Shown piece after piece: positions 1 through 47,173 of a DNA stretch of 64,000 nt. Position 1 is the stretch's first letter. Each line of letters begins with the position of its first letter. The position numbers and the translations under genes are program-made. This stretch comes from an uncultured Victivallales bacterium (GTDB lineage: Bacteria; Verrucomicrobiota; Kiritimatiellia; UBA8416). The notes under the pieces were generated by a model. It saw only the letters and a list, made by a program, of their open reading frames with translations, was not told the DNA's origin and did not search any database. The stretch lies in the NCBI GenBank assembly GCA_964576795.1, contig CAZNWT010000002.1, positions 65,033 to 129,032 on the forward strand, read 5' to 3'.

Positions 1-646
1 TGCCACCGATAGCGACCCCAAGCTTTTGAAGACAATTGAGACGCTTCCTGATGTGCTCTACTCGACCCGCCACCATGTAACGATACCTCGCCGCCCGGAA
101 GGCGTTTTGGTCTACATGCGGACCGCCGAACGCAATGATGCGTTGGCCTATGTGAACCAACAAGGTGAAAGCATCACGGAGTCACAGATGGAGATTCTAC
201 GCGCGGCTGCCTGCACCCCGGACACGCCTGCCCTGCCGCGGCATGACGCGCATCACGGACTGGTACAGGCTGGCGTTGAACACATTGTCCGCGAAGAGAA
301 GCGCATCGGCGGTCAGCTTGGCAACCCGCGCGGGGCGAGATTCCGAACTTACGAGCGTCTGAAGCACTATGTTCAGGATATTCAGGGAACCCTGTTTGAG
401 GCGAACTCCGATGAGATCAACAGAGTCCTTGATGAAATCTACAAATTTCCGCTGCGCCAAGTCGCGACGGACACACTCAATCGCCAACTCAAAGCTGGCA
501 TTAGTGACGATCAACTGGCTGAACTTGCCCTTATGCTGCGCGCCGAGGGGCGACTCTGTTTGGTTCACGATGAAGAAGAGGGCCGTGAGCCCCGCATTGT
601 CTGCTCCATGGGGCTATTCAGCGAACCAGGGGAGGAGCAGTCATGA
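1..646 (+). CDS. 3' end of a large upstream gene (5' part lies outside the window); unknown function; stop overlaps start of the next gene (ATGA)
   Basis: Open frame continues to nt 1 (frame 2: ATDSDPKLLKTIE...). Stop overlaps the start of the PglX-like gene, suggesting an operon. No recognisable catalytic motif in the visible 215 aa. A BrxC-like identity is speculation only. Confidence 0.3.
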   Translation, partial: ATDSDPKLLKTIETLPDVLYSTRHHVTIPRRPEGVLVYMRTAERNDALAYVNQQGESITESQMEILRAAACTPDTPALPRHDAHHGLVQAGVEHIVREEKRIGGQLGNPRGARFRTYERLKHYVQDIQGTLFEANSDEINRVLDEIYKFPLRQVATDTLNRQLKAGISDDQLAELALMLRAEGRLCLVHDEEEGREPRIVCSMGLFSEPGEEQS

Positions 647-3600
647 CATTGAATCTCTCTCGCTGCCGTGACTATCTTAACGGTTTCGAATTTCAGAAGC
701 TGTTTATCGAAGAACTCGGATGGTCGAATCCCGGCGCACGGCATGAAACCCCGTTTGCGATCAAGGAGAAGTCATTTTCGCGCTGCCCTCTGGCAGAGCT
801 GGCCGGTGTCATTGCTTTGGAGATTAAGTCCGAGGATGGTGAGATTCCCGATGCCAAGACGCGTCTGGCTATCCATAAGGTCGTCGCAAAACACTACCAC
901 GAGAATCTTCTTATCTTCGTGGATGCCGCTAGCACTCAAAGCCTCTGGTACTGGGTCAAACGCCAGGACGGCAAGCTACACCCCAGAAGCCACACCTATG
1001 TAAAGGGGCAGCCTGGCGATCTGTTCCTCAGCAAACTGAGCGCCATGGTGTTCGAGATTGGTGATTTCGAGGCGACCGGAGACGTCCCCCTCATTGAGGT
1101 GACCGAACGTCTCAAGACTGCGCTTGATGTAGAGCAGGTCACCAAGAAGTTCTACGGCGAATTTCAGGATCAACATCTTGCATTCATGGACCTGATCAAG
1201 GGCATCAAAGATGAGAAGGACCGCCGCTGGTATGCCTCCGTCCTCCTGCATCGTCTGATGTTCATCTATTTCCTCCAGAAGAAGTTCTTCTTGGACGGCG
1301 GGGATGAGTTCTATCTACAGAACAAACTCGCAACCATGCAGCGAAAGGGCAAGGATCTCTATTTTCAAGAGTTCCTCAAGCCTCTCTTCTTTGAAGGATT
1401 TGCCAAACCAGAAGACGACAGAAGTAATTCCATCAAACAGCTCCTCGGAAAGATCAGATACCTCAATGGCGGCCTATTCCTCAGGCACCGCATTGAGATT
1501 GACTGGCCGAACATCACCGTACCTGACGAAGCATTCAAGAACCTGTTGACGCTCTTCGCTGACTATTCATGGAATCTGAATGATACCCCGGGCGGTAAGG
1601 ACAACGAGATCAATCCAGATGTCCTAGGGTATATCTTTGAGAAATATATCAACCAGAAGGCCTTTGGTGCGTACTACACCCGCCCCGAAATCACGGAATA
1701 TCTGTGCGAGCGCACTATTCATCAGCTCATTCTCGATGGGGTAAACAAGAACGCCACGGGGGCATCCCGTCGGTTTGACGAAATAGGCGACCTCCTCCTG
1801 AATCTCGACGCACGTCTCTGTCAGCTTCTGCTTGATCATGTCCTCCCGGATCTTCGCCTGCTCGATCCAGCCTGTGGTTCTGCCGCGTTTCTGGTTGCTG
1901 CCATGAAAACTCTGATCAACGTTTACTCCGCCGTCATCGGGAGGATCGAATTTCTTGGGCATAAAGGGCTCATGAAGAAGCTAGAGAAGATCCAAAAAGA
2001 TCATCCAAGCATCAGCTACTTCATTAAGAAACGCATTATCACGGACAACCTGTTCGGCGTAGACATCATGGAAGAGGCTGTGGAAATAGCAAAGCTGCGG
2101 CTGTTTCTCGCCCTCGTTGCTGCGGCGAGCAAGGTGGAGGAACTCGAACCGTTGCCCAATATCGAATTCAACATCATGGCCGGCAACTCCCTGATCGGGT
2201 TGCTGCATGTTGATCCATCCAAGTTCAACGCCCTAACCGGCGGTTCTGCACATAAGAAAAAACCTGCCATGGTTCGCGAGCCGGGGCCTGATGAGCTTGG
2301 GTTTGCAGTTGAGAGTAAGGTTGCGAAGACGCGCAAGGAGACCGAGCGTGAATATTTGGCCAAGATCCAGGGGCAGAAATTCGAGGAGCTGCTCAAAGAG
2401 AAGAACGAACTGGTGGCCGTCTATCGCCGTGCCACGGGATACGGCACCGACCTCCAACAGTTGCGCGATGGCATTAAAGCGAAGAAACAGGCCGCCCAGA
2501 GCATTCTCAACAAGCTGTTGCTTGAGCAATTCACGAGCTTGGACATCAAGTATGAGCAAGTCACCTGGGACGACAAGAAGAACAAGGCCGGGCGCTCAAA
2601 GAAGCGGGATCTTCGGGAATCCGACATCCTTGCCCAGAAGCCTTTTCATTGGGGCTATGAATTCGACGAAATCATCAATAAGCGAGGCGGCTTCGACGCC
2701 ATCATCACTAACCCGCCTTGGGAGATCTTCAAACCCAACGGCAAGGAGTTCTTCGAGGACTATTCGGATGCCGTGTCCAAGAAGAAAATGACAATCAAAG
2801 AATTCCAGAATGAGCAAGCGAAGCTCCTGAACAATCCGAGGATACTAAGCTCTTGGCTGGACTATCTCAGCGGATTTCCACATCTCAGTGGTTTTTTCCG
2901 ATCGGCGGAGCAATACCACAATCAGATCAGCATCGTGAATGGCAAGAAGGCCGGAACCGATATCAACCTTTACAAGCTCTTCTTAGAGCAGTGTCACAGT
3001 CTGTTGCGATCCGATGGGCGCTGCGGTATTATTGTCCCGAGTGGAGTCTATACTGATCTCGGAACGAAACAGCTGCGCGAGATGCTGTTTGGTTCATCCA
3101 GGATCGACCGTCTCTTCGGCCTCTCGAACGAGAAATTTGTCTTCGAGAACGTCCATCATGCCTTCAAGTTCTGCATCCTGTCGTTTGTAAAGGGGGGGAC
3201 GTCTGAGTCGTTTCAGGCAGCCTTCCGAATCAACCCACGTGAAGCTGTTGCGGCTGACAAACTTGAGGAGTTTCTGCATACATCGTCGGCTCATATTGAT
3301 GTTTCAGTCGGACTAATCAGGAAACTGGCCCCTGATTCGCTATCAGTTATGGAATTCAGGAGTGCGCTAGATGTCCAGATCGCGAAACAGCTCCTCCATG
3401 TCCCCCTTCTCGGAGAAGACATCCCTGGTCAATGGAATCTACGATTCTCTGCTGAGTTTCACATGACCAATGACAGTCACCTATTCAAGACGGAATCAGG
3501 AAAGGGGCGATTACCCCTGTATGAGGGGAAGATGATCTGGCATTTTGATCATCTATATGCAGATCCAAAATGGTGGGTTGAAGAAAATGAGGGGCGTCTG

Positions 3601-4203
3601 AACCTACTTGGCAAGGAAGATGACTCGGGCCAGAAGCTAGGATATGAGTCAATTCGTCTTGGGTTTCGCGACATAACGGCAACAACAAATGAACGATCTC
3701 TTATTGCCTCAATAATCCCGGCGAAATGCTATGCGGGAAACACTCTGGTTGTGTCGTCCACGCAGAATGATCCCCACACTCTGGTGTTTGTTACTTCGCT
3801 CTTCGATAGCTTCACAATCGACTGGCTCATTCGAAAGAAGATAACGGCTCACTGTAACATGTTCTACATGTATCAGCTTCCGATTCCCCGCCTGACCAAA
3901 AAGGATGCGGCCTTGCTCTCTATTGTGGAACGGACAGCCCGCCTGATCTGCACGACTTCCGAATTCGACGATCTTGCGAAAGATATCTTTGGTGGGCGGG
4001 CAACGGCGAAATCTGTTGGTGTAACCGAGTCCGTAGCGTGCGCCAAGCTCCGGGCAGAGCTGGACGGACTCATCGCGCACCTGTACGGGCTAACGGAGGA
4101 TGAGTTCGCGCACATTCTCACGACCTTCCCGCTTGTGCCAGACCCCGTAAAGGTTGCGGCCCGCAATGCGTATCGTGATGTGGAGAAAGGACTGATCAAA
4201 TGA
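643..4203 (+). CDS. PglX/MmeI-family N6-adenine DNA methyltransferase (BREX PglX-like / type IIL-like), 1186 aa
   Basis: Motif 'GAYYTRPEI', SAM motif I 'LDPACGSAAFLVAAM' (~aa 407), motif IV 'ITNPPWEIFKP' (~aa 690), long C-terminal TRD-like region. The size is typical of PglX. Translationally coupled to both flanking genes. Confidence 0.75.
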   Translation: MTLNLSRCRDYLNGFEFQKLFIEELGWSNPGARHETPFAIKEKSFSRCPLAELAGVIALEIKSEDGEIPDAKTRLAIHKVVAKHYHENLLIFVDAASTQSLWYWVKRQDGKLHPRSHTYVKGQPGDLFLSKLSAMVFEIGDFEATGDVPLIEVTERLKTALDVEQVTKKFYGEFQDQHLAFMDLIKGIKDEKDRRWYASVLLHRLMFIYFLQKKFFLDGGDEFYLQNKLATMQRKGKDLYFQEFLKPLFFEGFAKPEDDRSNSIKQLLGKIRYLNGGLFLRHRIEIDWPNITVPDEAFKNLLTLFADYSWNLNDTPGGKDNEINPDVLGYIFEKYINQKAFGAYYTRPEITEYLCERTIHQLILDGVNKNATGASRRFDEIGDLLLNLDARLCQLLLDHVLPDLRLLDPACGSAAFLVAAMKTLINVYSAVIGRIEFLGHKGLMKKLEKIQKDHPSISYFIKKRIITDNLFGVDIMEEAVEIAKLRLFLALVAAASKVEELEPLPNIEFNIMAGNSLIGLLHVDPSKFNALTGGSAHKKKPAMVREPGPDELGFAVESKVAKTRKETEREYLAKIQGQKFEELLKEKNELVAVYRRATGYGTDLQQLRDGIKAKKQAAQSILNKLLLEQFTSLDIKYEQVTWDDKKNKAGRSKKRDLRESDILAQKPFHWGYEFDEIINKRGGFDAIITNPPWEIFKPNGKEFFEDYSDAVSKKKMTIKEFQNEQAKLLNNPRILSSWLDYLSGFPHLSGFFRSAEQYHNQISIVNGKKAGTDINLYKLFLEQCHSLLRSDGRCGIIVPSGVYTDLGTKQLREMLFGSSRIDRLFGLSNEKFVFENVHHAFKFCILSFVKGGTSESFQAAFRINPREAVAADKLEEFLHTSSAHIDVSVGLIRKLAPDSLSVMEFRSALDVQIAKQLLHVPLLGEDIPGQWNLRFSAEFHMTNDSHLFKTESGKGRLPLYEGKMIWHFDHLYADPKWWVEENEGRLNLLGKEDDSGQKLGYESIRLGFRDITATTNERSLIASIIPAKCYAGNTLVVSSTQNDPHTLVFVTSLFDSFTIDWLIRKKITAHCNMFYMYQLPIPRLTKKDAALLSIVERTARLICTTSEFDDLAKDIFGGRATAKSVGVTESVACAKLRAELDGLIAHLYGLTEDEFAHILTTFPLVPDPVKVAARNAYRDVEKGLIK

Positions 4204-5378
4204 AGAAACAACCAAGCCTAACGAGTGTACGCATTCGCAATTTCAAAGCTATACAGGATAGTGGCACCATTAAATTGGAGCCCCTAACGGTTCTGATTGG
4301 GAACAACGGTTCAGGGAAGAGTAGTTTTATCGAAGGCCTGGAAACGTTTGAACGAATAGTACAAGAGGATCTTGATAGTTCCATGGCGCCATGGCATGGA
4401 TTCGATCACGCTTGGAATCAGGGCGTGTCGCATGAAGACCGGCTAGAGACGAAGGAGAAGCGGGCATACCAGACAAATCCTATGACCTTTACCATCACGG
4501 GGAAACATGGAGGCCGCTTTTTGGGGGCTTTTCGCGCGGAGATGGATATTACCATGGGTAATGGAGGAAATGACCTCTTCATTCAGCGGGAGAAGTTGAA
4601 CTTCCGAAAGGGAATCAAGATAGAGCGCGACGACTCAGGGCTTGTGAAATATGACCCCATGCCGCCAGGACGCCAACAGGGCGGGCTGATGGCCGAGGGG
4701 AAATCTGTCATGCAGGACCTCGGTGCTGGTGGCATAGGTCACTGGCAATTTCTTACTCTGGTTCCCCAGAACATGGGGGAACCCGTCGCACAGAAGCGCA
4801 CAGGCGGCAGTATTCGGCTGAGTAAGGATGGCACGAATATAGCTCAGTACCTCCATTGGGTAAAACAGACCGATTCTGCTGCATTTGAGGGCATTCTTGA
4901 CACTATGCAGTACGTCCTTCCCTATGCGCGGGACCTGCAACCGAAGCTCACATCCGAACTCGAACGTGCCGTCAGCCTTGAAATGACCGAACAGGAGTAC
5001 AAGATTCCAGGTTGGTTGTTCTCTACCGGTACGCTTCGTATTCTTGCCCTTCTTGCCCTCCTTCGTAGCCCGGGACCTCCTCCATTAATTGTGGTAGAGG
5101 AAATCGAGAATGGGCTTGATCCCCGGACTATTCAGTTGGTTCTAGAGGAAATTCGAATGTCCGTCCAAGCGGGAGATACACAGGTTATACTAACCACTCA
5201 TTCTCCCTATCTTCTCGACATGCTGCACCTTCAGCATCTGGTGCTCTGTGAGCGAGTCGATGGTGTCCCTACGTTCGTTCGTCCGGCGGACTCAGAGGTG
5301 GTGAGTGATTGGGCTTCAAGCTTTACTCCTGGGAAGTTGTACACGATGGGACGTCTCGACAGGGGGTCGCGATCATGA
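4200..5378 (+). CDS. ABC/AAA-type ATPase (AAA_21/OLD-like, SMC-type head), 392 aa
   Basis: Walker A 'LIGNNGSGKSS', Walker B/D-loop 'LIVVEEIENGLDP', H-loop 'LTTHSPYLLD'. Start overlaps the stop of the upstream methyltransferase gene. Confidence 0.8.
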   Translation: MKKQPSLTSVRIRNFKAIQDSGTIKLEPLTVLIGNNGSGKSSFIEGLETFERIVQEDLDSSMAPWHGFDHAWNQGVSHEDRLETKEKRAYQTNPMTFTITGKHGGRFLGAFRAEMDITMGNGGNDLFIQREKLNFRKGIKIERDDSGLVKYDPMPPGRQQGGLMAEGKSVMQDLGAGGIGHWQFLTLVPQNMGEPVAQKRTGGSIRLSKDGTNIAQYLHWVKQTDSAAFEGILDTMQYVLPYARDLQPKLTSELERAVSLEMTEQEYKIPGWLFSTGTLRILALLALLRSPGPPPLIVVEEIENGLDPRTIQLVLEEIRMSVQAGDTQVILTTHSPYLLDMLHLQHLVLCERVDGVPTFVRPADSEVVSDWASSFTPGKLYTMGRLDRGSRS

Positions 5379-5971
5379 AGATTGGGATGATCTTTGAAAG
5401 CGGTGCGCAAGGAGCCGACTGGCAGGTCTGCAAGCATCTTGCAGAGAAGCTGAACCCGAGCTTGGATGTAGAATATGTCAACCACAGAAACAAACCCGAA
5501 ATGGTCAGTGACTGTGGCAAGGATGTCCGACTCCTTATTGCGCAGGGCTGCGAGAAAGTCCTCATCGTATGGGACCTCTATCCTTCACCGCACGGTAGTA
5601 ACCAAAAGCCATGTCGCAAAGCAGATCGAGACGCCATAATGCAGTCCCTCACGTATGCCGGAATGGAGGCCAAACCTGTTTGTCTTGTCTGTATCACCGA
5701 AGAGTTGGAGGCGTGGCTATTGGCAGACGGAAGAGCACTCACTGCATGTCTTTCAAGAACAAGCCATCCGGTAAAAAGGATCAGGAGCAGCAAAAAACCG
5801 GACCAGATCATCAGCCCAAAGAAGCGTCTGATTAAGCTGTTCAAGGAGAATGGGCGCGGGAAGTACAACAGTCTTGTTGATGCGATGCGCATCATCAAAG
5901 AGCTACCTGATATGACCCATATCCGGCGATCACCATCCTTCAAGCGTTTTGAGGAAAAGTTGACAACATGA
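5375..5971 (+). CDS. Small DUF4276-like protein, partner of the ATPase (TOPRIM-like? family assignment from memory)
   Basis: ATG at 5375 overlaps the ATPase stop (ATGA). The N-terminus 'MKIGMIFESGAQGADWQV' resembles the DUF4276 EG..E start. Such small proteins habitually follow AAA_21 ATPases in defence islands. Confidence 0.4.
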   Translation: MKIGMIFESGAQGADWQVCKHLAEKLNPSLDVEYVNHRNKPEMVSDCGKDVRLLIAQGCEKVLIVWDLYPSPHGSNQKPCRKADRDAIMQSLTYAGMEAKPVCLVCITEELEAWLLADGRALTACLSRTSHPVKRIRSSKKPDQIISPKKRLIKLFKENGRGKYNSLVDAMRIIKELPDMTHIRRSPSFKRFEEKLTT

Positions 5972-5985
5972 AGAGGCTTAGCAAA

Positions 5986-6076
5986 CCGCCAATGGCGGGC
6001 GAAAAGCAACTGTTGCTCCTGCACTATTTCTGTGTTGACAGCTCCAGTCGAATATACTACTCATTTGAGTAGCGTT
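5986..6076 (+). promoter_or_regulatory. Promoter/operator region of the lexA-like gene. Hairpin CCGCCAATGGCGG (5986-5998); palindromes AGCAACTGTTGCT (6005-6017), CTGTGTTGACAG (6030-6041, contains TTGACA) and CTACTCATTTGAGTAG (6056-6071, 5 nt before the ATG)
   Basis: Perfect inverted repeats read directly from the sequence. A -35-like TTGACA sits inside the second palindrome. The third palindrome overlaps the -10/RBS region. Confidence 0.4.
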
Positions 6077-6694
6077 ATGAAGGGGCCAACACCAAAACAG
6101 CGACAGGTACTGGATTACATCCGAGATGCAATCGACTCGGGGCAACCAACGCCATGCGTTCGGGAAATGCGGGACCATTTTGGGCTTCGCAGTACGAGAG
6201 CCGTCTGTGATCGTTTGGATGCCCTCGAGAAGAAGGGCTTGATTGATCGGGATCCAGGGAAAGCACGCTCCGTTCGCCTCGTGGGGGAGGAAGCGAGACA
6301 AGAGGCAACGGTGGTTGTTCCCGTACTGGGTCACATCCCGGCCGGCGTTGCTGTAGATGCCGAGGAGATGGTTGAAGGGACAATTCGTATCGGCGTCGAA
6401 ACGCTTGGCTTCGAGCCGACAGGGAAGACCTTCGCTCTGGTCGTCCATGGTGATTCCATGGAGGGTCGCGGAATTCTAGATGGCGACAGGATCATTGTTG
6501 ATGGAACACGGGAAGCGGAGAACGGCGACATGGTTGCGGCTTTGATAGATCAGGCGTGTTCTCTCAAGACTCTGGTAAAGGATGCAGACGGAGTATTCCT
6601 GAAGCCGGAAAACCCGGCATACGGGAACCTTATACCTGTTGATGACTTACTGATTCAGGGCGTGGCAAGAACGCTAATACGAACAATCGCTTAG
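6077..6694 (+). CDS. lexA: LexA-family repressor (N-terminal winged HTH + S24 self-cleaving peptidase), 205 aa
   Basis: wHTH 'QRQVLDYIRDAIDSGQPTPCVREM', Ala-Gly cleavage site 'IPAGVAV', Ser nucleophile 'HGDSMEG', Lys 'SLKTLVKD'. Sits 7 nt upstream of the second methyltransferase. Confidence 0.8.
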   Translation: MKGPTPKQRQVLDYIRDAIDSGQPTPCVREMRDHFGLRSTRAVCDRLDALEKKGLIDRDPGKARSVRLVGEEARQEATVVVPVLGHIPAGVAVDAEEMVEGTIRIGVETLGFEPTGKTFALVVHGDSMEGRGILDGDRIIVDGTREAENGDMVAALIDQACSLKTLVKDADGVFLKPENPAYGNLIPVDDLLIQGVARTLIRTIA

Positions 6695-6701
6695 ATAGCC
6701 A

Positions 6702-9700
6702 ATGAACAAGCAGAGCAAAACGATAAGCCGAAAGGCACTGGTCGACGCACACCGCAGAGAGGCGCCAGCAGGGCTGCTATTTTATGGCTCACCGGCCGAA
6801 ATGAAGGCCGACTCAGCGCTTACGCCCTATCTTCATGTGCTCATCCGCGCATGGGATGATTTGGGGCTGAGTGGAGTGCTCTGCGTTGATGGTTTGCCGA
6901 CGCTGTATCTTGCCGTCCGGAGTAAGCCGGTTTCCCCAAGCGATGGTGCGTCCCTACAGCGCCTCTTCTGGAATCAAGGCGTTGCAACAGTGCTTGTTGT
7001 TGCCGATGCAACAACCGTCCGCGTCTACTCCGGTTTGGCCAAGCCCACACGTGCGGATGCCTCAACGGGGGAAGACATCGGCCTGGTCGAGGCGCTGAAT
7101 CTTGCGGATTATGCTGTCAATGTGCGCACTTTCCTGCTGCGACTGGCAACGGGCAGTTACTATCGAGCCAACGCGGCGCATTTCTCCCCAGAGCAAACCG
7201 TTGACGCATATCTGCTGAACAACCTGCGGAAGCTCTGTGACAAGCTCGTCGAGAGCAACAGCCGACTCAACGTTGAGAAGGTACACACATTCCTGGCCCG
7301 TATTCTCTTCGCGTGCTACCTGATTGATAGGGGAATCATCGACTTGGATGACCACACAGAATGCCAGCGTTCTTCCGCAACGTCGCTTGGACAGATGCTT
7401 GACGCCTTGGGAACGGTCGAAGACAAGAGACATGCGCTTCATTGCCTTTTCGAAAGGTTGAAGAATGACTTCAACGGGAGCATGTTTGAGCGTGCGACCC
7501 TTTCCGAATGTAGGCAATTGAGTGCCGCTGCGTTGCAGAGTCTGACGGATTTTCTCCAGGGCCATGACCTAGGGACAGGACAATACACTCTTGATTTCTG
7601 GGCGTACGATTTCCGTTTCATTCCCGTGGAGACGATCAGCGCGGTCTATGAAGATTTTCTAAAACGCGAAGACGAGCCAGAAAAGCGGGCCAAGGGCGCA
7701 TACTACACGCCGAGGTTCCTAGCCGAGACGGTCATTGACTTGGCAATCCCTGCTGACGAAACGCTTGAGGGTAAACGCGTCCTTGATCCCGCCTGCGGTT
7801 CCGGCATATTCCTTGTAACGCTTTTTAACCGCATGGCAACCGCATGGGAAGCCGGGCACCCGACCTTGGCGCGTGACTATGGGCGCAAGGCGGACGCCCT
7901 AAACGCTATACTACGTGACCAACTTTGCGGAGTAGATGTCAACCCAACAGCATGCCGCATTGCTTGCTTCAGTCTCTACCTTGCATTTCTTGATCGCTTC
8001 GATCCGCCAGACGTTCAGGGCTATGTTCGTCGTAAGGGAAAACTGCCCAGCATTCTTCTCCATCGCGATCCTAATTCCGACGACTTGCCGACCTTCCCCG
8101 TAATCCGTGAAGACGACTTCCTGGCCCCCACCCATAAACTACCCGAGGGTTTCGATTATGTTGTCGGCAATCCGCCGTGGGAGGGGCGGGGGGCGAGGAA
8201 TGGCAAACATCATCAATTTGCCCGGAAGGTACCCGACCATCTCGCCGAAGGAGCCGTGGCCTGTCTGCTTCTGCCGTCAAAAACCTTCCTGAACGATAAG
8301 ACGAATCAGTTTCAGAGCGAGTGGTTGCGAACCGTGACCGTCGAGGAGGTGGTCCAGCTCGCCGACTACAGTTTCATCTTATTCAAAGAGGCGAAATGCC
8401 CGTGCATGATTGTGCATTTCAGGGCTGCTTTGCCTGACGTGACTGATGCTCTGATCCAGTATTCGGTGCCCAAAGTAACCCATATTGACCGGCGCGATGG
8501 CATCATCCCTGTGGCCCCCGCCGACAGGAAGTTCATCCCCCTCCGACGGATACTGGCTGCTGCGGATCAAGACGCTGCACCTGCAGTCTGGAAAGAATAT
8601 CTCTGGGGCACGCCCCGCGACATCAAGCTCCTCGATCTGCTTCAGCAAATGCCAAAACTGGGTGACATTGCAGGAAAGCCCCGCGAGAAACTGCGGTGGG
8701 TGAAAGGAGAAGGGTTCCAGCCTGCCACCAAAAGTACAACGAACCCGACTCAGCGCCCTTGGAAGAATACCAAACCATTCTTGAAGGCTTCCGCTCCGTT
8801 CCCCGGTCTGTTTGTCCTGCCGGATGACTGCTCTCCCCTCGGCGAGCGGTTCCCTCTGCTTCACCGTGCACGTAACCCCCGTATCTACGAGTCCCCCCTT
8901 GTGTTGGTGAGTCAAGGAATTGGCAAAGACGGATCTGCGAAAGTTACGTATTGCGCTGAGGACGTCGTTTTCCAGGACTCGCTTCAGGTAATCAGCGGGC
9001 CTGCCGAGGACGAAGACCTGCTGATCTTCTTAGCTGTATACGTGCGCTCAAAGCTCGCCAAGTACTTCCTGTTCAATGTTGCAGCGAACTGGGGAACCGA
9101 ACGGGACAAAATGCTGCTTACGGAGCTTCTCTCGCTTCCCCTTCCGTTGCCAGGTTGCGATTACGTTCCAGCGACTGCCGACAAAATCCTAAAGAAGATC
9201 GCCCAGCGGGTCAAAGCACTCAAGCGCCGAATGCTGACCACGCAGCCGGACGCAGATGACGTGTTGGCGCATCAGCAATGGACTGATAACCGGCGGAGAG
9301 AAACCGAAGACCTCCAGCTTGAACTTGATCCTCTTGTGTTTGAGTACTTCGGCCTCATAGACCAGGAGATTGCGTTGGTTGAAGACTGTGTTGACATCGT
9401 CATCCCAAGTGCGACGCCAGCCAGCTTGAGCGCAGAACTGCGAACCCGCGCCCCCATCCAGAAGAACAACTATGAGAACTACTCCGGCGGGCTTTCTTCG
9501 TATGCCGAGACTCTTGGTAACACACTCAATGAGTGGGCCGGGCAATCGCAATCTGACGTGAGAGTGTCGATATCCGGGGGTGTCCATAAAGCCAGTGACA
9601 TGGCCTGCCTTACGGCTGAACTAACAGCCGATCCGCAGCCATTCAGAGAAGTAACACCTTCAGACGAGACTTTCCTATCCGTCGCCAGGCTGGCCGAATC

Positions 9701-9887
9701 ATCGTCATCTCGATCAGGCTGCCTTGACTACCTGCGTGGCATCATTGCATTTGATGGGACTTTCATCCACATTTTCAAGCCGACGGCCCTCATTGGCTGG
9801 ACCCGAACAGCGGCGCTGAACGACGCCGCGGAGATCTATGCCCGTATAGCGGATGCTCGCAACGCCATGCGGGAGGTCGATGCGTGA
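6702..9887 (+). CDS. Second PglX/type-IIG-like N6-adenine methyltransferase with C-terminal TRD-like half and no recognisable nuclease domain, 1061 aa
   Basis: 'KGAYYTPRFLAETVIDLA', motif I 'LDPACGSGIFLV' (~aa 361), motif IV 'VVGNPPWEG' (~aa 489). Long C-terminal region resembles MmeI/PglX TRDs. Confidence 0.8.
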   Translation: MNKQSKTISRKALVDAHRREAPAGLLFYGSPAEMKADSALTPYLHVLIRAWDDLGLSGVLCVDGLPTLYLAVRSKPVSPSDGASLQRLFWNQGVATVLVVADATTVRVYSGLAKPTRADASTGEDIGLVEALNLADYAVNVRTFLLRLATGSYYRANAAHFSPEQTVDAYLLNNLRKLCDKLVESNSRLNVEKVHTFLARILFACYLIDRGIIDLDDHTECQRSSATSLGQMLDALGTVEDKRHALHCLFERLKNDFNGSMFERATLSECRQLSAAALQSLTDFLQGHDLGTGQYTLDFWAYDFRFIPVETISAVYEDFLKREDEPEKRAKGAYYTPRFLAETVIDLAIPADETLEGKRVLDPACGSGIFLVTLFNRMATAWEAGHPTLARDYGRKADALNAILRDQLCGVDVNPTACRIACFSLYLAFLDRFDPPDVQGYVRRKGKLPSILLHRDPNSDDLPTFPVIREDDFLAPTHKLPEGFDYVVGNPPWEGRGARNGKHHQFARKVPDHLAEGAVACLLLPSKTFLNDKTNQFQSEWLRTVTVEEVVQLADYSFILFKEAKCPCMIVHFRAALPDVTDALIQYSVPKVTHIDRRDGIIPVAPADRKFIPLRRILAAADQDAAPAVWKEYLWGTPRDIKLLDLLQQMPKLGDIAGKPREKLRWVKGEGFQPATKSTTNPTQRPWKNTKPFLKASAPFPGLFVLPDDCSPLGERFPLLHRARNPRIYESPLVLVSQGIGKDGSAKVTYCAEDVVFQDSLQVISGPAEDEDLLIFLAVYVRSKLAKYFLFNVAANWGTERDKMLLTELLSLPLPLPGCDYVPATADKILKKIAQRVKALKRRMLTTQPDADDVLAHQQWTDNRRRETEDLQLELDPLVFEYFGLIDQEIALVEDCVDIVIPSATPASLSAELRTRAPIQKNNYENYSGGLSSYAETLGNTLNEWAGQSQSDVRVSISGGVHKASDMACLTAELTADPQPFREVTPSDETFLSVARLAESSSSRSGCLDYLRGIIAFDGTFIHIFKPTALIGWTRTAALNDAAEIYARIADARNAMREVDA

Positions 9888-10519
9888 ATGCCCGAGCTTG
9901 TGTCGCTCTGTTTCCAGAAGACCAGATTCCCGTAATTCTTGATACGGTGCTCGACTGTGCTTCAACTCTTCGCAAGAAGAGCCCCAACGAACTTGAGAAC
10001 CACCTCTCTACCCGCCTTGTGAAGCGCCTCCAAGTCGATCTACGTATGCGCGGCGGCCCATTCGTAGTGTGTCCCGAATACCAAGTACTTGATAAATCTG
10101 TCGATGATGCTCAACACAAAGGTCACATTGATATTTGCTTCGTGACAACACAGGGAAGCGACACATACTTCGCCATCGAGGCAAAGAGGCTGCATGTCAC
10201 ATATGGAAAAGGAAAGTGGACATCTCTGGTTGGAGAATACGTTACGGGCAACCAAGGTATGATGTGTTTCGTGACGGCCAAGTACTCTGCCGCACAACAA
10301 GCGGGTGCAATGCTCGGGTATGTGTTCGACGGCGATACAAACAAAGCACGTGATGGCATATCCAAGTCCATTGACAACAACAGGACGAAACTCAACTTGG
10401 CAGGGACGCAGGGACTTCTGAAATCGCGGATTGTTCATCGAGCAGAGCACGTCGACGAAACGCAGCACCATTTCGGGCGGCGTCCCTTTACCATGTATCA
10501 CCTCTTGGTGCCCGTATGA
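9884..10519 (+). CDS. PD-(D/E)xK restriction-endonuclease-like protein, 211 aa
   Basis: 'VCPEYQV...GHIDICFVTTQGSDTYFAIEAKRL' gives an E...(P)D...ExK arrangement. Start overlaps the methyltransferase stop (ATGA). Confidence 0.5.
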   Translation: MNARACVALFPEDQIPVILDTVLDCASTLRKKSPNELENHLSTRLVKRLQVDLRMRGGPFVVCPEYQVLDKSVDDAQHKGHIDICFVTTQGSDTYFAIEAKRLHVTYGKGKWTSLVGEYVTGNQGMMCFVTAKYSAAQQAGAMLGYVFDGDTNKARDGISKSIDNNRTKLNLAGTQGLLKSRIVHRAEHVDETQHHFGRRPFTMYHLLVPV

Positions 10520-11076
10520 GTATCAGCGGGGAGACTCTGAGGACGGTTGGTGACGCTTCGATCCTGAAGCGCCCCAAGGTGGCGCTGTTCTGCTCGGTCA
10601 AATGTCCTGGAAGACTAATTCTTGAAACCTACGACCTCGCCAAGAAATTTCGCCGCGACGGCATTCTTGTTGTGAGTGGGTTCCATTCCCCCATGGAGCA
10701 GGAATGCCTCCGCATTCTGCTTCAATCCCCACACCCGGTCATCTGGTGTCTCGCTCGCGGCATGTATCGCCGCGTGCCTACTAGCCCGATAGATTGCCGT
10801 CCTGCAGTCGAGGGTGGCCGTCTAGCGATCGTATCCCCGTTTCCGGAGAAGATGCGCCACGTCACTGCGGAGACGGCGATGATTCGGAATCGCTTCGTCG
10901 CCAGCATGGCCGACGCCATCGTGGTTTCCCACGCGACAAGCGGAGGCAAGATGGATGCCCTATGTAGGGAGCTCCTCGCGGCAGGTAAACCGCTCTACAC
11001 CTTTGATCATCCGGCAAACGAAGAACTTCTGCGTGCTGGGGCACAGTCTGTTGCCGCTATGGCGGGTGCTGGTTGA
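10516..11076 (+). CDS. DprA/Smf-like (SLOG Rossmann) protein, 186 aa
   Basis: 'ILVVSGFHSPMEQECLRILL' resembles the DprA 'SGxARGIDxxAH' signature. 'RNRFVASMADAIVVSHATSGGKMDALCRELLAAGKPLYTF' resembles the DprA C-terminal 'RNRiiagls...vvveaa..SGaliTa..Al..gr.vfavPG'. Overlaps the stop of the nuclease gene. Confidence 0.55.
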   Translation: MSISGETLRTVGDASILKRPKVALFCSVKCPGRLILETYDLAKKFRRDGILVVSGFHSPMEQECLRILLQSPHPVIWCLARGMYRRVPTSPIDCRPAVEGGRLAIVSPFPEKMRHVTAETAMIRNRFVASMADAIVVSHATSGGKMDALCRELLAAGKPLYTFDHPANEELLRAGAQSVAAMAGAG

Positions 11077-11183
11077 ACGTAGCAGAGATACAGACGTCAT
11101 TGATCGGAATGGGGCATCGCCTTGCGGCCCGGGGGCGGGCCACCTCTATTTCAGTAAACCAACCCCATTCTGGAATAATGGAG

Positions 11184-11456: not shown

Positions 11457-14400
11457 GTGGAATATCATGCGAAAGACCAAAGGGAGGGGCGAAGACGAGA
11501 CGGAGTGGGTCTCGTGTCTCTTTTTCTGGCCCTTCTGGTGTGTCCAATAGGGGGTTGGAGTCAGGAAGCGCCAGCGCAAACGGGGGATGGGGTTCGAGCC
11601 GGCTGCGAAGTCGACTATCCGCCGTTCTGCACCGTCGACGAACAGGGCTCGGCGCGAGGCTTCTCCGTGGAACTCCTACGCGTTGCGATAAAGGCAATGG
11701 AGCGTGACGTTACATTTCGCACGGGCCCTTGGGCGGAGGTCAAGGGGTGGCTGGCACGTGGGGAGATCGACGCGCTGCCGCTGGTCGGCCGCACGCTGGA
11801 GCGGGAAGCCCTATTTGACTTTACGGTTCCCTACATGACGATGCGCGGTTGCATCGTTGTGCGGCAAGGCTCTCGTGACATTCACAATCTTGGCGATCTG
11901 CGAGGCCGTCGCGTGGTGGTGATGGATGCCGACAATGCCGAAGAGTTTCTTCTGCGTGAGCAGCGCAATTTCGATATCATCAGTGTCCCCACCTTTGCGG
12001 ATGCACTGCGTATGCTCTGCGAAGGGGGGGGGCGATGCGGTTTTCATGCAGCGTTTGGTTGCGCTTCGTTTGATCGATGAGCTTGGACTTCAAGACTTGA
12101 TGATTGTGAATCGCCCGATCTCCGGTTATACGCAGGACTTCTGTTTTGCGGTTAAGGACGGCGATAGCGACACGCTTTCGATGTTGAACGAGGGCCTGGC
12201 GTTGGTGGTGGCCGACGGGACGCGCCGCCGACTTTACTCCAAGTGGTTTGCGGCACTCGAACTGCCGTCTGACCGCCCGATTGTCATCGGCGGGGATGAC
12301 AATTACCCGCCATTCGAGTTTCTTGATGAGAAAGGTAACCCGGCAGGTTACAACGTTGATCTCGTGCGGGCTGTGGCGCAGGCCGTGGGGATGGATATCG
12401 AAATACGGCTTGGACCGTGGGCCAATATCGTCAAGGAATTTGAGAAGGGCGAGATTGACGCTATCGAAGGTATGTCATATTCCTTGGACCGTGACGCGAA
12501 CGTCGATTTCAGTCCGCCGCACAACATCAATCATCGTGTTAGTGTTGTCCGCCGGGGAAACGGGCGACCGCCTTGCAACCTCGCTGAACTGCGGGATCTA
12601 TCCATCATTGTTCAGGACGGGGATATCCTGCATGAGTGGGTCGTGGCTCAAGGTCTGACAAACCGCTTGACGGTGGTGCGGGATCAAGAGGATGCGCTGC
12701 GGGAGGTGGCTGCGGGTCGGCAGGACTGTGCTCTTGTGGCGCGTATGTCTGCGCTGTATTGGATCGACAAGTTCAAGTTGCGCAATCTGGTTGTAGGTGA
12801 CGTGCCGCTGTTGGCTTCGCAATACTGTTTTGCTGTCCAGAATGGCGGCAAGGCTCTACTCGCGAATCTTAGTGAAGGACTGAAAGCAATCGAGCAAAGT
12901 GGTGAGTATCGGCGAATCCACGACAAGTGGATGGGGGTCTACGAAGAATCGTCGACATCGCTGTTGGACCTTTTGGGATATGTCGCTGTCGTGGCCATTC
13001 CCCTGTTGGGCATTCTTGCAATGGTTTTCCTCTGGTCATGGTCGCTACAGCGAAAAGTTTCAGAGCGCACGGCGGCATTGCGGGTTAGTGAAGCTCGATT
13101 ACATCGTGCCCAGCGTGTTGCTCTCATTGGCGACTGGGAGCTTGATCTTTCTACAGGCATGGTCGACGCTTCTGAGGAAGCGCGGTGCATCTACGGCTTC
13201 GATAATCGACTTTGGGGCATCAAGGAAGTGCAGGAGATTCCGCTTCCCGAATACCGGGCTATGCTAAATAGCGCTTTGACGGGACTGTGCGAGCGGGGCG
13301 AAGCGTATGATGTTACGTTTCGCATACAAAGACCGTCCGATGGTGCTCTGGTGGACGTCTATTCGGTGGCGAAGTATGACCGCGACAGAAACCTAGTCTA
13401 TGGTGTGATCCAGGATGTGACTGATCAAAAGGCGAACGAAGCGTTGCTGGCGGCCAGCGAGGAGCAACTGCGCTTGGTGCTGGATTCGAGTCCCATCCCC
13501 ACTGCCGTTGTCGATCCCGAGAATGTGAACATATTTTCTTGGAGTCGAAGCGCCTGTGAACTATTTGGTCACACACCAGCCACGACGGCCGAATGGTTCG
13601 AGATTGCCTATCCTGATCCTGACTACCGACGTGAGGTCCTCGAGCGGTGGAAACCATTACTGGCGAAAGGTCGCGATGAGGGGGGGACCGTTTGTGCCGG
13701 CGAGTATCGGATTTGCTGTCAGGATGGCTCAACCCGGGTATGCGAGATCTTTGTACGCTTTGTGCCCGGGAATCTGATCGTCACACTACACGACATCACC
13801 GAGCAGAATCGTCTGCAGGAGAGTCTGCTCCAGGCGCAGAAACTCGAATCCGTGGGCCGGTTGGCTGGGGGCGTGGCACATGACTTCAACAATCTTTTGA
13901 CGGGGATCATGAATTATGTCGATTTATGCCGCGACAATCTTGACGCTGACCATACGGTTCGTCAATGGCTTGATGAAATTACACGCGATTCGCAGCGCTC
14001 TGCGGGATTGGTTCGCCAGCTGCTGACATTTGCCCGGAAGCAGACCATTAAGCCGAAGGTGTTGGACCTCAATGACGCAGTGGCCGACACGCTTAACTTG
14101 CTTCGGCACCTGATCGGTGCAGATGTCAATCTGCTTTGGCAACCGGGAGCAAGTCTGGAGCCGGTGAAGATGGACCCGACCCAGCTTGACCAGATTCTTG
14201 CAAACCTTTGCGTGAATGCACGAGATGCTATCGCGGGGGTGGGAAAAATTACGATTGAAACCATCAATGCAACCATTAATGACGAATACTGCGCGGAGCA
14301 CGCGGAAGCGCGACCGGGCGATTTTATTGTGCTAGCGGTCAGCGATGATGGGTGTGGGATGGATGCGAAGACGCTCGTCAGCATCTTCGAGCCTTTCTTT

Positions 14401-14964
14401 ACGACCAAAGGTGTTGGAAAAGGTACGGGGTTGGGGCTGGCGACACTATACGGAATCGTTAAACAGAATGACGGCTTCATCAACGTCTACAGTGAACCGG
14501 GTGTTGGCACCACGTTTCGAATCTACTTGCCGGTCAGCGAGGAGGGCGTTAGAGCCCCTGCGGTAACCAAGGTTGCGACTCCGCGGCCGCGCGGTAATGA
14601 GACCATTCTGCTGGTCGAGGATGAGAATTCTATTCGTCTTACTACCGCGATGTTCCTTTCCGATTTGGGGTACGAAATGTTATCGGCCGAATCGCCGGAA
14701 GAGGCTGTGGATTTGGTCGCGGGACGCGACGGCGAGATAGATCTGCTGATCACCGATGTGGTGATGCCCGGTATGAGCGGCCGCGACCTGGCGGTGAAAT
14801 TGGAAGAAACGCGTCCCAACATGCGATGCCTTTACGTTTCCGGCTATACGGCTAACGTCATTGCGGATCGTGGGATTTTCGATTCGGATGTTAACTTTCT
14901 TCCCAAGCCATTCTCCCGTGATGATATTGCAAAGAAGGTGCGGGAGATTCTCGACAGTCGCTAG
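11457..14964 (+). CDS. Hybrid sensor histidine kinase (2x periplasmic SBP_bac_3 – TM – PAS – PAS – HisKA – HATPase – REC); reading frame broken in a G9 homopolymer at ~12024-12032
   Basis: ORFs 11457..12080 and 11926..14964 join seamlessly across 'gaagggggggggcgatg' (…ALRMLCEGGG / DAVFMQRLVAL…). H-box 'GGVAHDFNNLL', 'GTGLGLATLYGIV', receiver 'LLITDVVMPGMSG'. Confidence 0.8.
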
Positions 14965-15153
14965 GTTAGTGTCGTGCAAATTAAGAATGAGGGTAAGTCA
15001 GAGAACGTGTCTGTATTTTCGTAATCGTACTCCTGCTCAGTAATCATAATCGGGATGTGAGGTGTCATTTTTGATTAGGATTATGCGTAGGATTACGATT
15101 AGGATGCAAAAAGGATTAAGTATCCTCATGGAAAGTTTAGGGGGAGTTGCACG

Positions 15154-17571
15154 ATGAAAACCAACAATCGAGATCAAACGCCAGCAGGGGCCGTCAATGC
15201 CACGCAGTCATCGAGCGCGTCGGAATTGATTCGTACTGCACGACGTCACTCAATACTAAAATTTATTGTGATCTTTATTGTGATTAGCCTGGCATTTATC
15301 ACTACCGGGCACCGGTACTACCGTCACGAGATAGAGGCGATACGTGTCAACAAGAGAAACGAACTGAGATTCATCGCCGATGAAAAAGCCGCGAGCATTT
15401 CGAACTGGCGGATGGAACGGCTGACGGATGCCCGCCTAATAGCTTCCGGATTAGTCAGAATGCGTGCGATTGAATGGCTCAAGAGGCCCGATGATGAGGC
15501 GCTTAAGCGCCTGCTTCTGCGCCGCTTCCGGCTGTTTCAGGAAGGCTATGAGTTACAGAATGTCATCTTGGCCGACCTGGAGGGGCACCTCTTACTCTCG
15601 TTGGAGCCCGATGGTGTGGTCATGGAGGTTCGGGCGAAGGAATTGGCAGTGCAGGCCGTTGAAGCGAATCAGCCCGTTTTAGGCAATTTCCATGGTTGCG
15701 AGCGTGGTTACGGGATCCATTTGGATGTGGCCGCACCGATCGTGAATGAAGAAGGGGATGTGGTTTCCGTTATTCTGTTGCGCACCGATCCGAATCACTA
15801 TCTATATCCGCTCATCCAATCCTGGCCTACGCCCAGCAAGACAGCAGAAACGCTACTGTTCTGCCGGGATGGTGATGAGGTGCTGTTCTTGAACAAGCTG
15901 CGCCATTTGCCTGATCCACCTTTGACCTTGCGTATTCCTATGACACAAATGAATGTTCCCGCCGTCCAGGCGGCAATGGGCCTGACGGGAGTCTTTGAGG
16001 GCTTAGATTATCGAGGGGAACCGGTTCTGACAGATTTATGCTCTATAGACGGCTCTCCCTGGTACATGGTGGCTAAAGTTGACACACTTGAAATTCTCGC
16101 TGAAGCCCGTTACCGCGCCCGGAGCATCCTGCTCTTCATCGCCCTCGTCCTCGTCCTGCTTGGCCTCCTGACTGCCTATCTGATAAACGAACGGCGGCGA
16201 CATCTCTACAAGTCTCTATTCCGCGCTGAGCAGTGCAGGCGGCAAACCCAGGAAGAGATTCGTGCTACCCTTTACGGCATTGGTGACGGTGTGATCGCCA
16301 CGGATGCCACGGAGCGGGTTACGCGAATGAATCCCGTGGCTGAACAGCTCACCGGTTGGAGCGAGGCCGAAGCATTGACTAAACCACTGAATGATGTGTT
16401 CCGCATCGTCAACGAGGAGACCCGGAGCGAGGTCGAAAACCCCGCCGACCGCGTACTGCGTGAAGGCAAGATCGTAGGGCTGGCAAATCACACGGTGCTG
16501 CTTTCCCGTGACGGAACCGAGCGGGCCATTTCCGATAGCGCCGCTCCCATTCTCGCTGAAGCCGGCGACATTAGGGGCGTCGTATTGGTTTTCCGTGATC
16601 AGACGGCCGAACGTGCAGTGCAGAAGGCGGAGAAAATGCAGCAGCAACTGCGGCTACAGTTGGTACAGTCTCAAAAACTTGAATCCATCGGCACACTGGC
16701 TGGTGGCGTGGCGCATGAGATCAACAACCCAATCATGGGAATTCTGGGGTATGCGCAGCTTATTGTTGATAAACTTGAAGGCCAGAACGATGAAATTGTG
16801 GGTTTTTCGCGCGTGATTATAAACGAGACGGAGCGTGTTGCTACTATCGTTAAAAACCTTTTGGGTTTCGCTCGCCATGACAAACAAGGCTACGGTGCCG
16901 CGCGGCTCTGTGATGTTGTGGATGCGACGATGTCGCTTGTTGGTGTGGTCATGCGTCACGACCATATCGCGCTGGAAATCGACGTGCCCGATGACTTGCC
17001 CCAGATCCATTGCAGTAGCCAACAGATTCAGCAGGTGATCATGAATCTCTTGACGAATGCGCGCGATGCTTTGAACGAGAAATACCCCGGCCGTGACAAC
17101 AGCAAGAAGGCTATTGTCAAGGTGGAGTGTGGAATACGGAACGCAGAAGGAAAATGGAAACTCGGAGACGGGGGCCCAGACTCCGCCAAGGCTACGTTGT
17201 GCAAGCCGTTGCCCTCTATGCTCGGTTTGCGGCCTGCCTTGGAGGGCGGCGGCCTGCCCCGTGCCGTGACGAAGTCTCTGGTTCAGGGGCCTCCGCCGCT
17301 GGACTGCTGGATCCGGTTGACCGTCGAAGATCGTGGCTCTGGCATCCCCCCAGAGCTCCGCGATCGCATTTTCGAGCCCTTCTTTACGACCAAACCTCGG
17401 GACAAAGGCACCGGCCTAGGCTTATCGATCAGCTATGGTATCGTTAGAGATCACGGTGGAGAGCTGAGTGTAGAAAGCGAAGTCGGACAGTGGACGCGTT
17501 TTCATGTAGACTTGCCGGTCCTGAGCGAAGTCGATGGGCCGGTGGTGGGGCCGGTGGAGAGTGGGGCGTGA
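15154..17571 (+). CDS. Sensor histidine kinase (TM – periplasmic sensor – TM – PAS – HisKA – HATPase_c), 805 aa
   Basis: H-box '[14 protein letters not shown]', 'DRGSGIPPE', G2 box '[13 protein letters not shown]'. Confidence 0.8.
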
Positions 17572-33826: not shown

Positions 33827-34160
33827 CCCTATGAATTAATGTGCACTTTAAGAAAATAATGCCACCAATTCAATATCTTTATAAAAAAGGAGGGGTAATG
33901 GAGTGAAGGCCATCTATTCCAGTTAAGATTTTGAACAAAGAGGAAGCAAAGGAATACAGAAAGCCTGCTATTCTAAAGATCAAGGAAGCTTGGGCTACTG
34001 CTGGAATTTGAACAGAAGGAAACGAAGAGAACGAAGAAGAAGACTCAACTCATGTTGCCGGATTGAAGTTGTTCTGTTGGACACATATGATACATTTAGA
34101 ATCACTGTAAAGAGATGCGTTTACAATGGGATCGAAGCTTTGTTTGATGGAGGCGATGTT

Positions 34161-38217: not shown

Positions 38218-38233
38218 AGCTCACGGACGAGGG

Positions 38234-47137: not shown

Positions 47138-47173
47138 TGGCAAGTATCGGTGGATTCTGATAGCCCTGATGAT

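Follow-up and report, generated by a model that had tools for sequence, protein, structure and literature searches.

Introduction

Class 1 DISARM (DrmD, DrmMI, DrmA, DrmB and DrmC) and ARMADA II (ArmA-ArmD) have in common a module in which a SNF2 helicase stands beside a large PglX/Eco57I-type methylase. DISARM uses a PLD nuclease, and both DISARM and ARMADA are built around a YprA helicase, which defines them. MANTIS, the Gao_RL or type-2 BREX-related system (MtsA-D), combines a separate N6-adenine methylase with an effector in which PLD(HKD) is fused to an SF2/SNF2 ATPase; in the proposed mechanism the methylase recognises the site and this effector cuts DNA that is unmethylated, and MtsD is dimeric in its solved structure, with a single PLD site. 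PglX (BrxX), the methylase of BREX, is a gamma-class NPPW protein of about 1200 amino acids (aa) composed of an N-terminal domain, a helical region, the methylase proper, a target-recognition domain (TRD) and a C-terminal domain, and in BREX type 3 PglXI is paired with the SNF2 helicase BrxHII. Here we describe an operon at positions 1-11076 of a 64,000-nucleotide (nt) stretch of DNA from an uncultured Victivallales bacterium (contig CAZNWT010000002.1), the whole of which is called the window. It encodes a helicase-nuclease (HEL) and a PglX-like methylase of 1186 aa (MT), and we consider it likely that it is an uncharacterised restriction-like defence operon with nested cassettes. It is best read as related to the modules of DISARM, MANTIS and BREX-3, with HEL and MT as the core and a DprA-like protein as the closing gene in the subclade of the window.

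Compared with DISARM and ARMADA, the window system is without the YprA/DUF1998 helicase (DrmA/B, ArmC), its PLD domain is fused to the SNF2 N-terminus and its core is made of two or three genes. The likeness to MANTIS lies in the fused effector and the separate methylase, but DUF499 (an AAA+ ATPase) and DUF3780 are both missing, and MT is not a DUF1156 methylase but an Eco57I/MmeI/PglX-type enzyme that has an N-terminal module and a TRD of its own; neither Pfam nor PADLOC gave a match of DUF499, DUF1156 or DUF3780 in any protein of the operon. MT shares with PglX its size, its NPPW class and a collinear fold match obtained with a poor model, whereas identity is about 12-13%, the scores are under all PglX cut-offs, and PglZ, BrxA, BrxB, BrxC and BrxL are missing. 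By the labels of hidden Markov models (HMMs) the closest relatives are the type IIG/IIL enzymes (MmeI, Eco57I, BpuSI), which also carry methylase and TRD on one polypeptide, although MT has no conserved PD-(D/E)xK, and nuclease and motor are on the separate SNF2 protein. In HEL, as in SauUSI, an ATP motor is joined to a PLD nuclease, and HEL and MT may resemble the split motor-nuclease systems Type III, Type ISP and CglI/NgoAVII. No description of a system made of a PLD-SNF2 protein and an Eco57I-type methylase, with or without DprA, was found in the searchable literature, which is incomplete.

Organisation of the HEL-MT core

The genes of the operon are on the same strand and tightly packed, and its open reading frames (ORFs) continue past position 5971 as far as 11076. 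An earlier, sequence-only reading of positions 1-5971 had proposed four ORFs with ATGA coupling of the methylase to an upstream gene and to an ATPase, and with an overlap of the ATPase and a small protein. These ORFs are real (2-646, partial; 643-4203, 1186 aa; 4200-5378, 392 aa; 5375-5971, 198 aa) and the start/stop overlaps are located at 643-646, 4200-4203 and 5375-5378. Successive 4-nt overlaps also join the genes of a second methylase (MT2, 1061 aa), a 211-aa protein and a 186-aa protein further downstream. Identical sequences of the 1186, 392, 198, 205, 1061, 211 and 186-aa products are present in public gene calls, and the closest matches of the operon proteins come from metagenome-assembled genomes of Verrucomicrobiota, Kiritimatiellia and Lentisphaerota. 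The core features are as follows, homologous loci being labelled L001-L100.

2-646, + strand: C-terminal 214 aa of HEL, a PLD(HKD)-SNF2 helicase-nuclease of about 1130 aa, open to the window edge, 76% identical to the helicase of L004
643-4203, + strand: MT, 1186-aa gamma-class N6-adenine DNA methylase of PglX / type IIG-like architecture (Eco57I, MmeI_Mtase, NPPW)
10516-11076, + strand: 186-aa DprA-like protein with the Rossmann-fold domain only (DNA_processg_A), which closes the operon

The 214-aa HEL fragment alone gave no family match in profile searches of Pfam, PADLOC and NCBIfam. Over 210 aa it has 76% identity with positions 918-1127 of the 1133-aa helicase of L004, a metagenomic locus in which that helicase precedes the closest MT homologue (72% identity). 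Full-length HEL homologues contain PLDc_2, SNF2-rel_dom and Helicase_C, and one HxK...GSxN (HKD) motif is conserved in 61 of them together with the SNF2 motifs GLGKT (I), DESH (II) and QRxGRVDRIGQ (VI). The HKD and Swi2/Snf2 fusion is therefore confirmed in full-length homologues, while the window shows the C-terminal 214 aa. Because of the identity to the L004 helicase and the domains and motifs of the homologues, the big gene upstream of MT is a helicase-nuclease and not BrxC. The genes 5' of HEL vary and include a DpdF-like 814-aa protein in L093 (4181-6625). A 65-aa helix-turn-helix protein abuts the HEL start in L004 (2590-2787), and many loci have a short ORF (about 100-120 aa) for a possible regulator 5' of HEL.

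When one genome per species was scanned, at least 570 genomes were found to encode an MT relative, and 80 loci were kept. ORFs were called and clustered in the kept loci and the first metagenomic loci (L001-L084) and in the first 20 kb of the window, and the comparison covers 81 related loci. They belong to Verrucomicrobiota, Planctomycetota, Cyanobacteria, Proteobacteria, Bacteroidota, Chloroflexota and Acidobacteriota. The recurrent neighbours of MT belong to only four families, namely HEL, the two proteins of the HEC-01 cassette described below (HEC-01A and HEC-01B) and the DprA-like protein; no family of BREX, DISARM (DrmA/DrmB), DUF499 or DUF3780 recurs in the 81 loci. HEL is encoded upstream of MT on the same strand in 67 of the 78 loci with enough sequence (86%). 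The gap between the two genes is 20 nt or less in 28 loci, often with a 1-4 nt overlap, and inserts of 85-2867 nt separate them in 39. Pairwise identities of HEL and MT are strongly correlated (r = 0.83).

The DprA-like protein of 186 aa matched DNA_processg_A with 41.9 bits and PADLOC PsyrA with 63 bits, and it is 60% identical to the gene product closing the L004 operon; PsyrA and ShosA are its sole named relatives. It was detected by HMM in 12 non-redundant loci, where its gene is the last of the operon. In L093 this gene overlaps the end of the methylase gene by 4 nt, giving a compact three-gene operon of HEL, MT and DprA-like protein, and in L086 it stands close behind the methylase. Co-variation with the HEL C-terminus was detected (r = 0.54; Mantel 1 of 5000). 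The identity of the DprA-like protein seems to track the type of methylase (0.55-0.66 vs 0.34-0.43) and not the helicase. As to its role, we can only guess that it partners or restrains the helicase, or binds single-stranded DNA.

The inserts between HEL and MT are of many kinds and include, in various loci, DUF1016, PDDEXK_3, KilA-N, DUF559, HIRAN, zeta-toxin-like, DUF3800, Uma2, HSDR_N and AlbA_2 proteins. Other loci carry HEC-04, an OLD/GajA/AriA-like 602-aa ATPase or RhuM after MT, and in some loci this place is taken by what is presumably a TcmP/DUF5131-like pair, an assignment made by reading the sequences. Since the inserts between HEL and MT and the cassettes after MT are so varied, both junctions of the core accept defence-type cargo. 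Defence cargo in such junctions has been reported for Hma, BREX, DISARM and type I systems (bioRxiv 10.1101/2024.01.29.577857). A long ATPase was considered as a third core gene and rejected: the 528-602-aa ATPases of L001 and L004 belong to different families (HEC-04; OLD/GajA/AriA-like) and most loci are without one.

The HEC-01 cassette behind the methylase

Between MT and the downstream genes of the window lies a pair of coupled genes.

4200-5378, + strand: HEC-01A, 392-aa OLD/PARIS-type ABC ATPase (PADLOC HEC-01A, AAA_21)
5375-5971, + strand: HEC-01B, 198-aa DUF4276 protein (Pfam DUF4276, PADLOC HEC-01B)

The larger protein had been taken for an ABC-type ATPase with Walker A and B motifs, and this was borne out by AAA_21 (99.7 bits) and AAA_15 (65.3 bits). 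Walker A (GNNGSGKSS), the ABC signature, Walker B (VVEEIE) and the H-loop (THSP) are conserved in 22 homologues, and all four motifs are intact in the window. Its best PADLOC model is HEC-01A (159 bits, E 4e-47), and AriA of PARIS scored lower (96 bits). The smaller protein, counted as 198 aa from its ATG (the mechanical ORF begins at TTG 5309), matched Pfam DUF4276 with 50.5 bits (cut-off 30.2), as had been supposed from the sequence, and PADLOC HEC-01B with 35 bits (E 3e-9). Acidic residues E8, D15, D67, E110, E112 and D118 are conserved in it. Profile searches against DUF4276 and DUF4435 had been suggested for this protein; it matched nothing but DUF4276 and the HEC-01B models, and no AriB (DUF4435) match was found at E <= 0.01 with Pfam or PADLOC. 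The L004 copies are 84% (ATPase) and 81% (198-aa protein) identical. HEC-01A followed by HEC-01B on the same strand with a 4-nt overlap is the arrangement that defines HEC-01, the Hma-embedded candidate 01, which was described as nested in Hma systems in >100 genomes and whose DUF4276 partner has a TOPRIM-like fold with a metal site (bioRxiv 10.1101/2024.01.29.577857). The window thus resembles HEC-01, and by analogy PARIS (AriA/AriB), in embedding an OLD-type ABC ATPase with a TOPRIM-like small partner in a methylase-based operon, but the host system is not Hma, and AriB/DUF4435 of PARIS is missing.

HEC-01A is encoded downstream of MT in 22 of 72 loci (31%), with the exact 4-nt overlap in 13 and within 17 nt of the MT stop codon in 18, and HEC-01B recurs behind it. 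The pair stands between MT and the DprA-like gene in L004, L012, L018 and the window. It might be thought that the system has four genes and cannot do without such a pair as a subunit, which could load or activate MT in the way of MtsA/MtsB in MANTIS. The overlap with MT in 13 of the 22 loci, the occurrence across phyla and a significant though weak co-variation with MT (r = 0.37; Mantel 4 of 2000) would agree with this, and so would the similar ATPase and small-protein pair of another methylation-based system (MAD3/MAD4-like, 109 and 22 bits). HEC-01 alone, moreover, gave no phage protection in E. coli assays (bioRxiv 10.1101/2024.01.29.577857). We nevertheless regard the obligatory role as unlikely: 69% of the loci are without the pair, different cassettes take the same position elsewhere, the pair was defined from another host system, Hma, and its correlation with MT is far from the 0.83 found for HEL. 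The weak co-variation and the other cassettes at the same position make HEC-01 a frequent accessory and not a core subunit. By its sequence, the pair is an already catalogued candidate cassette, and the constant partner of MT is HEL. The proposal that a PglX-family methylase is paired here with an OLD/PARIS-style ATPase module is roughly right as a description, given that BrxX/PglX ranks first by fold (with a poor model) and that the pair occurs in 31% of the loci.

According to a recent survey, modules of OLD-type ABC ATPase and TOPRIM are back-up effectors recruited to BREX and BREX-related systems, and PARIS senses the anti-restriction protein Ocr. Solved structures with Ocr bound to PglX/BrxX were among the Foldseek matches of MT. 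This precedent, the sensing of Ocr by PARIS and the Ocr-bound structures make it plausible, by analogy, that HEC-01 may act as a guard against anti-restriction proteins.

The methylase and its N-terminal module

MT matched Eco57I (84 bits) and MmeI_Mtase (37 bits) of Pfam. The NPPW motif reported for it was recovered as motif IV at residues 690-693 and is, like motif I (DPACGS), invariant in 26 homologues. The methylase and the target-recognition region lie in one polypeptide of the Eco57I/MmeI family, as in type IIG enzymes. The REase_MTase_IIG models of PADLOC score MT with 112-407 bits, and the top model, PDLC03628 (407 bits), covers residues 1-388 only. The PglX models are far weaker: 36 bits for PADLOC PglX and, in NCBIfam, 53.5 bits against a cut-off of 500 for NF033452 (BREX_1_MTaseX), 30 against 400 for NF033451 and 30.5 against 900 for NF033455.

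The AlphaFold2 (AF2) model of MT, built from a 26-sequence alignment, has a predicted local distance difference test score (pLDDT) of 58. When this poor model was used in Foldseek, full-length BrxX/PglX structures (9ewz, 8zek, 8c45) ranked first with E about 2e-9 and about 1190 aligned columns, at 12-13% identity and a template modelling (TM) score of only 0.2; CamA, M.TaqI, M.BseCI and MmeI followed. Searches of MT against the sequences of solved structures, singly or as a profile, gave no matches. The model is poor and therefore permits no conclusion on the N-terminal domain of MT. The earlier description of MT as PglX-like is fair for size and, as far as the poor model goes, for architecture; membership of the PglX family does not stand, the best score being 53.5 bits against the cut-off of 500.

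In residues 1-110 no conserved D...(D/E)xK was found among the 26 homologues. The residues conserved in this part are E23, E24, E60, H86, E87, D94, Q99 and K106, and they do not have the canonical spacing, though with so uncertain a structure a degenerate site is conceivable. Since the MT N-terminus lacks a conserved PD-(D/E)xK, the PLD domain of HEL is the obvious nuclease. The N-terminal module of about 380 aa was found in 2468 clusters (50% identity, E <= 1e-10), always at the N-terminus, in proteins of about 1050-1390 aa. In L086-L095, helicases with about 75% identity to the window HEL are paired with a sister methylase, which is 43% identical to MT over the N-terminal 375 aa or so and about 31% identical over the catalytic remainder; the sister methylase of L093 matches PDLC03628 from end to end (989 bits). 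As the sister methylase shares only these N-terminal 375 aa or so, the N-terminal module appears to travel with HEL while the rest is exchangeable. We infer from these alignments that the module probably couples MT to HEL. The presence of two methylase families with near-identical helicases also suggests that the catalytic and TRD half is swapped as a module.

It could be argued that MT is an autonomous type IIG/IIL restriction-modification enzyme and that the helicase, the ATPase pair and the other genes are simply its neighbours in a defence island. The best PADLOC models of MT and the 989 bits of the sister family speak for this, and the predicted alpha/beta arrangement of the MT N-terminus (in the pLDDT 58 model) is compatible with a nuclease-like fold. 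Against it stand the missing D...(D/E)xK in the N-terminal 110 residues, the helicase in 86% of the loci, often with an overlap of 1-4 nt and with r = 0.83, and the N-terminal module that is kept with the helicase though the catalytic/TRD half has been exchanged. This explanation is in our opinion improbable.

Relation to DISARM, MADS, Hma and BREX

The DISARM and ARMADA proteins are the best named matches of the helicases after a generic 'HKD+Snf2' model, which raises the question whether the operon is a reduced class 1 DISARM or ARMADA, made of DrmD and DrmMI with DrmC fused. Homologous helicases match DrmD with 120 bits in PADLOC and 155 in NCBIfam, MT matches DrmMI partially (104 bits), and the PLD nuclease and the shared SNF2-methylase module fit as well. 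However, the DrmD score of 155, obtained with the L004 helicase, is far under the NCBIfam cut-off of 610, and DrmA, DrmB or any other helicase of the YprA family (DUF1998), the defining core of DISARM and ARMADA, is missing; the window has no DUF1998/DrmB match, and none recurs in the related loci. A reduced DISARM is about as improbable as an autonomous type IIG enzyme. The matches to MADS also fell below the cut-offs (MAD3 109.5/420, MAD4 22.4/160, MAD2 36/720). Hma, which came to mind as host system from the HEC-01 matches, was rejected: Hma proper consists of a SNF2+DUF3883 protein, a DUF1156 methylase and a DUF499 ATPase, and none of them is present.

The sequence-only reading had offered, as one of two options, a BREX-type locus with its 5' half outside the window and a replaced 3' half. 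As a type 1 or 3 locus with brxA/B/C further upstream and pglZ/brxL replaced, this can hardly be maintained: the PglX-like size and architecture of MT, its top Foldseek matches and the weak PglX HMM matches of 36-53 bits speak for it, but the gene directly 5' of MT encodes a PLD-SNF2 helicase, MT scores about one tenth of the PglX cut-offs, unrelated genes lie upstream of the helicase in L001, L004 and L093, no BREX family recurs in the 81 loci, and PglZ, BrxL and BrxC are missing from the 64 kb, PglZ and BrxL being found, in agreement with the earlier observation that neither follows the pair, neither among the ten operon proteins nor among the other large ORFs.

A possible mechanism of HEL-MT

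Gene order and coupling, domain content, conserved motifs, co-occurrence and co-variation are what was observed, and every biochemical step that follows is one we infer from them. MT would mark the host DNA at a short, probably asymmetric site on one strand, the mode of marking of the MmeI and PglX families and of MANTIS. At unmodified sites MT may recruit or license HEL. HEL has a single HKD motif and would therefore have to dimerise, as MtsD, BfiI and SauUSI do, to assemble one HKD active site from two subunits; it would then translocate along the DNA driven by ATP and cut the foreign DNA. Type III/ISP enzymes, DrmD/DrmMI/DrmC of DISARM and MtsD, the effector of MANTIS, are believed to work in this manner. 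HEC-01 would most likely be an independent back-up or guard effector, triggered for instance when phage anti-restriction proteins attack MT.

Several points weigh against the reading of the operon as a HEL-MT defence system. No methylation, cleavage or phage data were found for any member of the family. The N-terminal PLD and motor domains of the window HEL lie outside the window and are predicted from its homologues. The closest PADLOC models of MT are type IIG restriction enzyme-methylases, and a nuclease within MT itself is still conceivable because of these labels and of a model too poor (pLDDT 58) for the N-terminal domain. The failure of HEC-01 to protect E. coli, mentioned above, belongs here as well. 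Finally, most of the wider family has no DprA-like gene, and about half of the closest loci with enough downstream sequence are without it too, so the DprA-like protein is a clade-specific third component.

More tentatively, and with less than even confidence, HEL-MT, joined in one clade by the DprA-like protein, may represent a restriction system of its own, widespread and minimal, in which MT directly licenses the motor-nuclease without a BrxC/DUF499 ATPase or a YprA helicase, the two junctions are dedicated docking sites for cassettes, and HEC-01 is a guard that fires upon inhibition of MT. If this is true, HEL-MT would be the minimal form of the BREX/MANTIS/DISARM group. BREX, DISARM, ARMADA and MANTIS all unite ATP motors with a methylase that is PglX-like or of a related kind; for most of them the link from site recognition to DNA destruction is still unclear, and HEL-MT would be the simplest system for reconstitution. 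HEL-MT has been invisible in defence censuses because the pipelines label its genes generically or as a stand-alone type IIG enzyme. A cultured carrier exists in Anabaena cylindrica PCC 7122, which is a ready experimental model. Its 20.6-kb plasmid pANACY.05 (NC_020056.1; L100) has the order HEL-MT-ATPase-DUF4276 at 468-9301 with an integrase nearby, and the RefSeq labels of these genes are helicase-related protein, DNA methyltransferase, ATP-binding protein and DUF4276 protein.

A second nested cassette with a LexA-type repressor

A second cassette is nested between HEC-01 and the DprA-like gene, and it begins in a gap of 105 nt after HEC-01.

6035-6072, + strand: promoter-like TTGACA, 17-nt spacer and palindrome, a probable operator, conserved upstream of orthologues
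6077-6694, + strand: 205-aa LexA-type self-cleaving repressor, first gene of the nested trio (TIGR00498)
6702-9887, + strand: MT2, 1061-aa type IIG-like methylase (PADLOC PDLC03623, N6_Mtase)
9884-10519, + strand: 211-aa predicted PD-(D/E)xK nuclease, partner of MT2 (invariant D83, E99-x-K101)

The gap contains TTGACA (6035-6040), the 17-nt spacer and the palindrome ACTACTCATTTGAGTAG (6056-6072), and the start codon of the lexA-like gene follows. The exact palindrome occurs once in the 64 kb (0.18 expected). The lexA-like orthologues of L096 and L098 also have TTGAC and the palindrome upstream, so that both are kept in all three contexts, with the consensus TTGAC(A) + 17 nt + ACTAC(T/A)CAT(A/T)TGAGTAG; judged from this conservation, the palindrome is a probable operator. 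The 205-aa protein scored 169 bits with TIGR00498 (lexA; cut-off 111), contains LexA_DNA_bind and Peptidase_S24, and has the Ala-Gly site, the serine in GDSM and the catalytic lysine in SLK.

MT2 matched the REase_MTase_IIG model PDLC03623 of PADLOC with 236 bits over residues 58-958 and N6_Mtase with 54 bits, and >2400 homologues were found. Among 417 homologues of the 211-aa protein none has a Pfam domain. D83 and E99-x-K101 are invariant in 56 sequences of this family, and its AF2 model (pLDDT 88.9) shows an alpha-beta-beta-beta-alpha-beta core with weak fold matches to McrC and to the nuclease domain of BpuSI. Its gene is always located behind MT2 with the 4-nt overlap. The protein is predicted to be the PD-(D/E)xK nuclease of the MT2 cassette.

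The trio of LexA-type repressor, MT2 and 211-aa protein is conserved in L096-L099. In L096 and L097 it is placed between the JetC-like (SbcC_Walker_B) and JetD-like (DUF3323/DUF2399) genes of a Wadjet-like operon, and in L098 and L099 it stands alone, which suggests a restriction module that is induced by DNA damage and can settle within other defence operons. In the window the trio would likewise work as an independent, damage-inducible module of the restriction-modification kind. The locus extends the approach of 'guilt by embedding' to a new host system, with HEC-01 and the LexA-controlled methylase/nuclease cassette as test cases.

Surroundings of the operon

The operon is followed by one further feature, which is a consensus match only.

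11126-11141, + strand: terminator-like GC-rich hairpin GGCCCG-GGGG-CGGGCC with a T-rich tail, ACCTCTATTT

Scans for sigma-70 promoters and terminators gave no enrichment above shuffled sequences. Directly 3' of the operon, at 11926-17571, two large sensor histidine kinases are encoded, one of them a hybrid with periplasmic SBP_bac_3, PAS and receiver domains; they look like ordinary chromosomal genes that mark the end of the island. Genes for sulfatase, heparinase and arabinofuranosidase are also present in the window and, with the closest protein matches, suggest a bacterium of the PVC group. A second defence island is located at 33990-47680. It encodes a PDC-S13 protein, a DrmD-like SNF2 helicase (695 bits with PADLOC DrmD), a PD-Lambda-2_B-like protein, and the Mod methylase and Res protein of type III. 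The gene of an AlbA_2/Fic-like_C protein is squeezed in ahead of the Res gene, with an overlap of 4 nt, and a PDC-S07 protein is encoded on the opposite strand.

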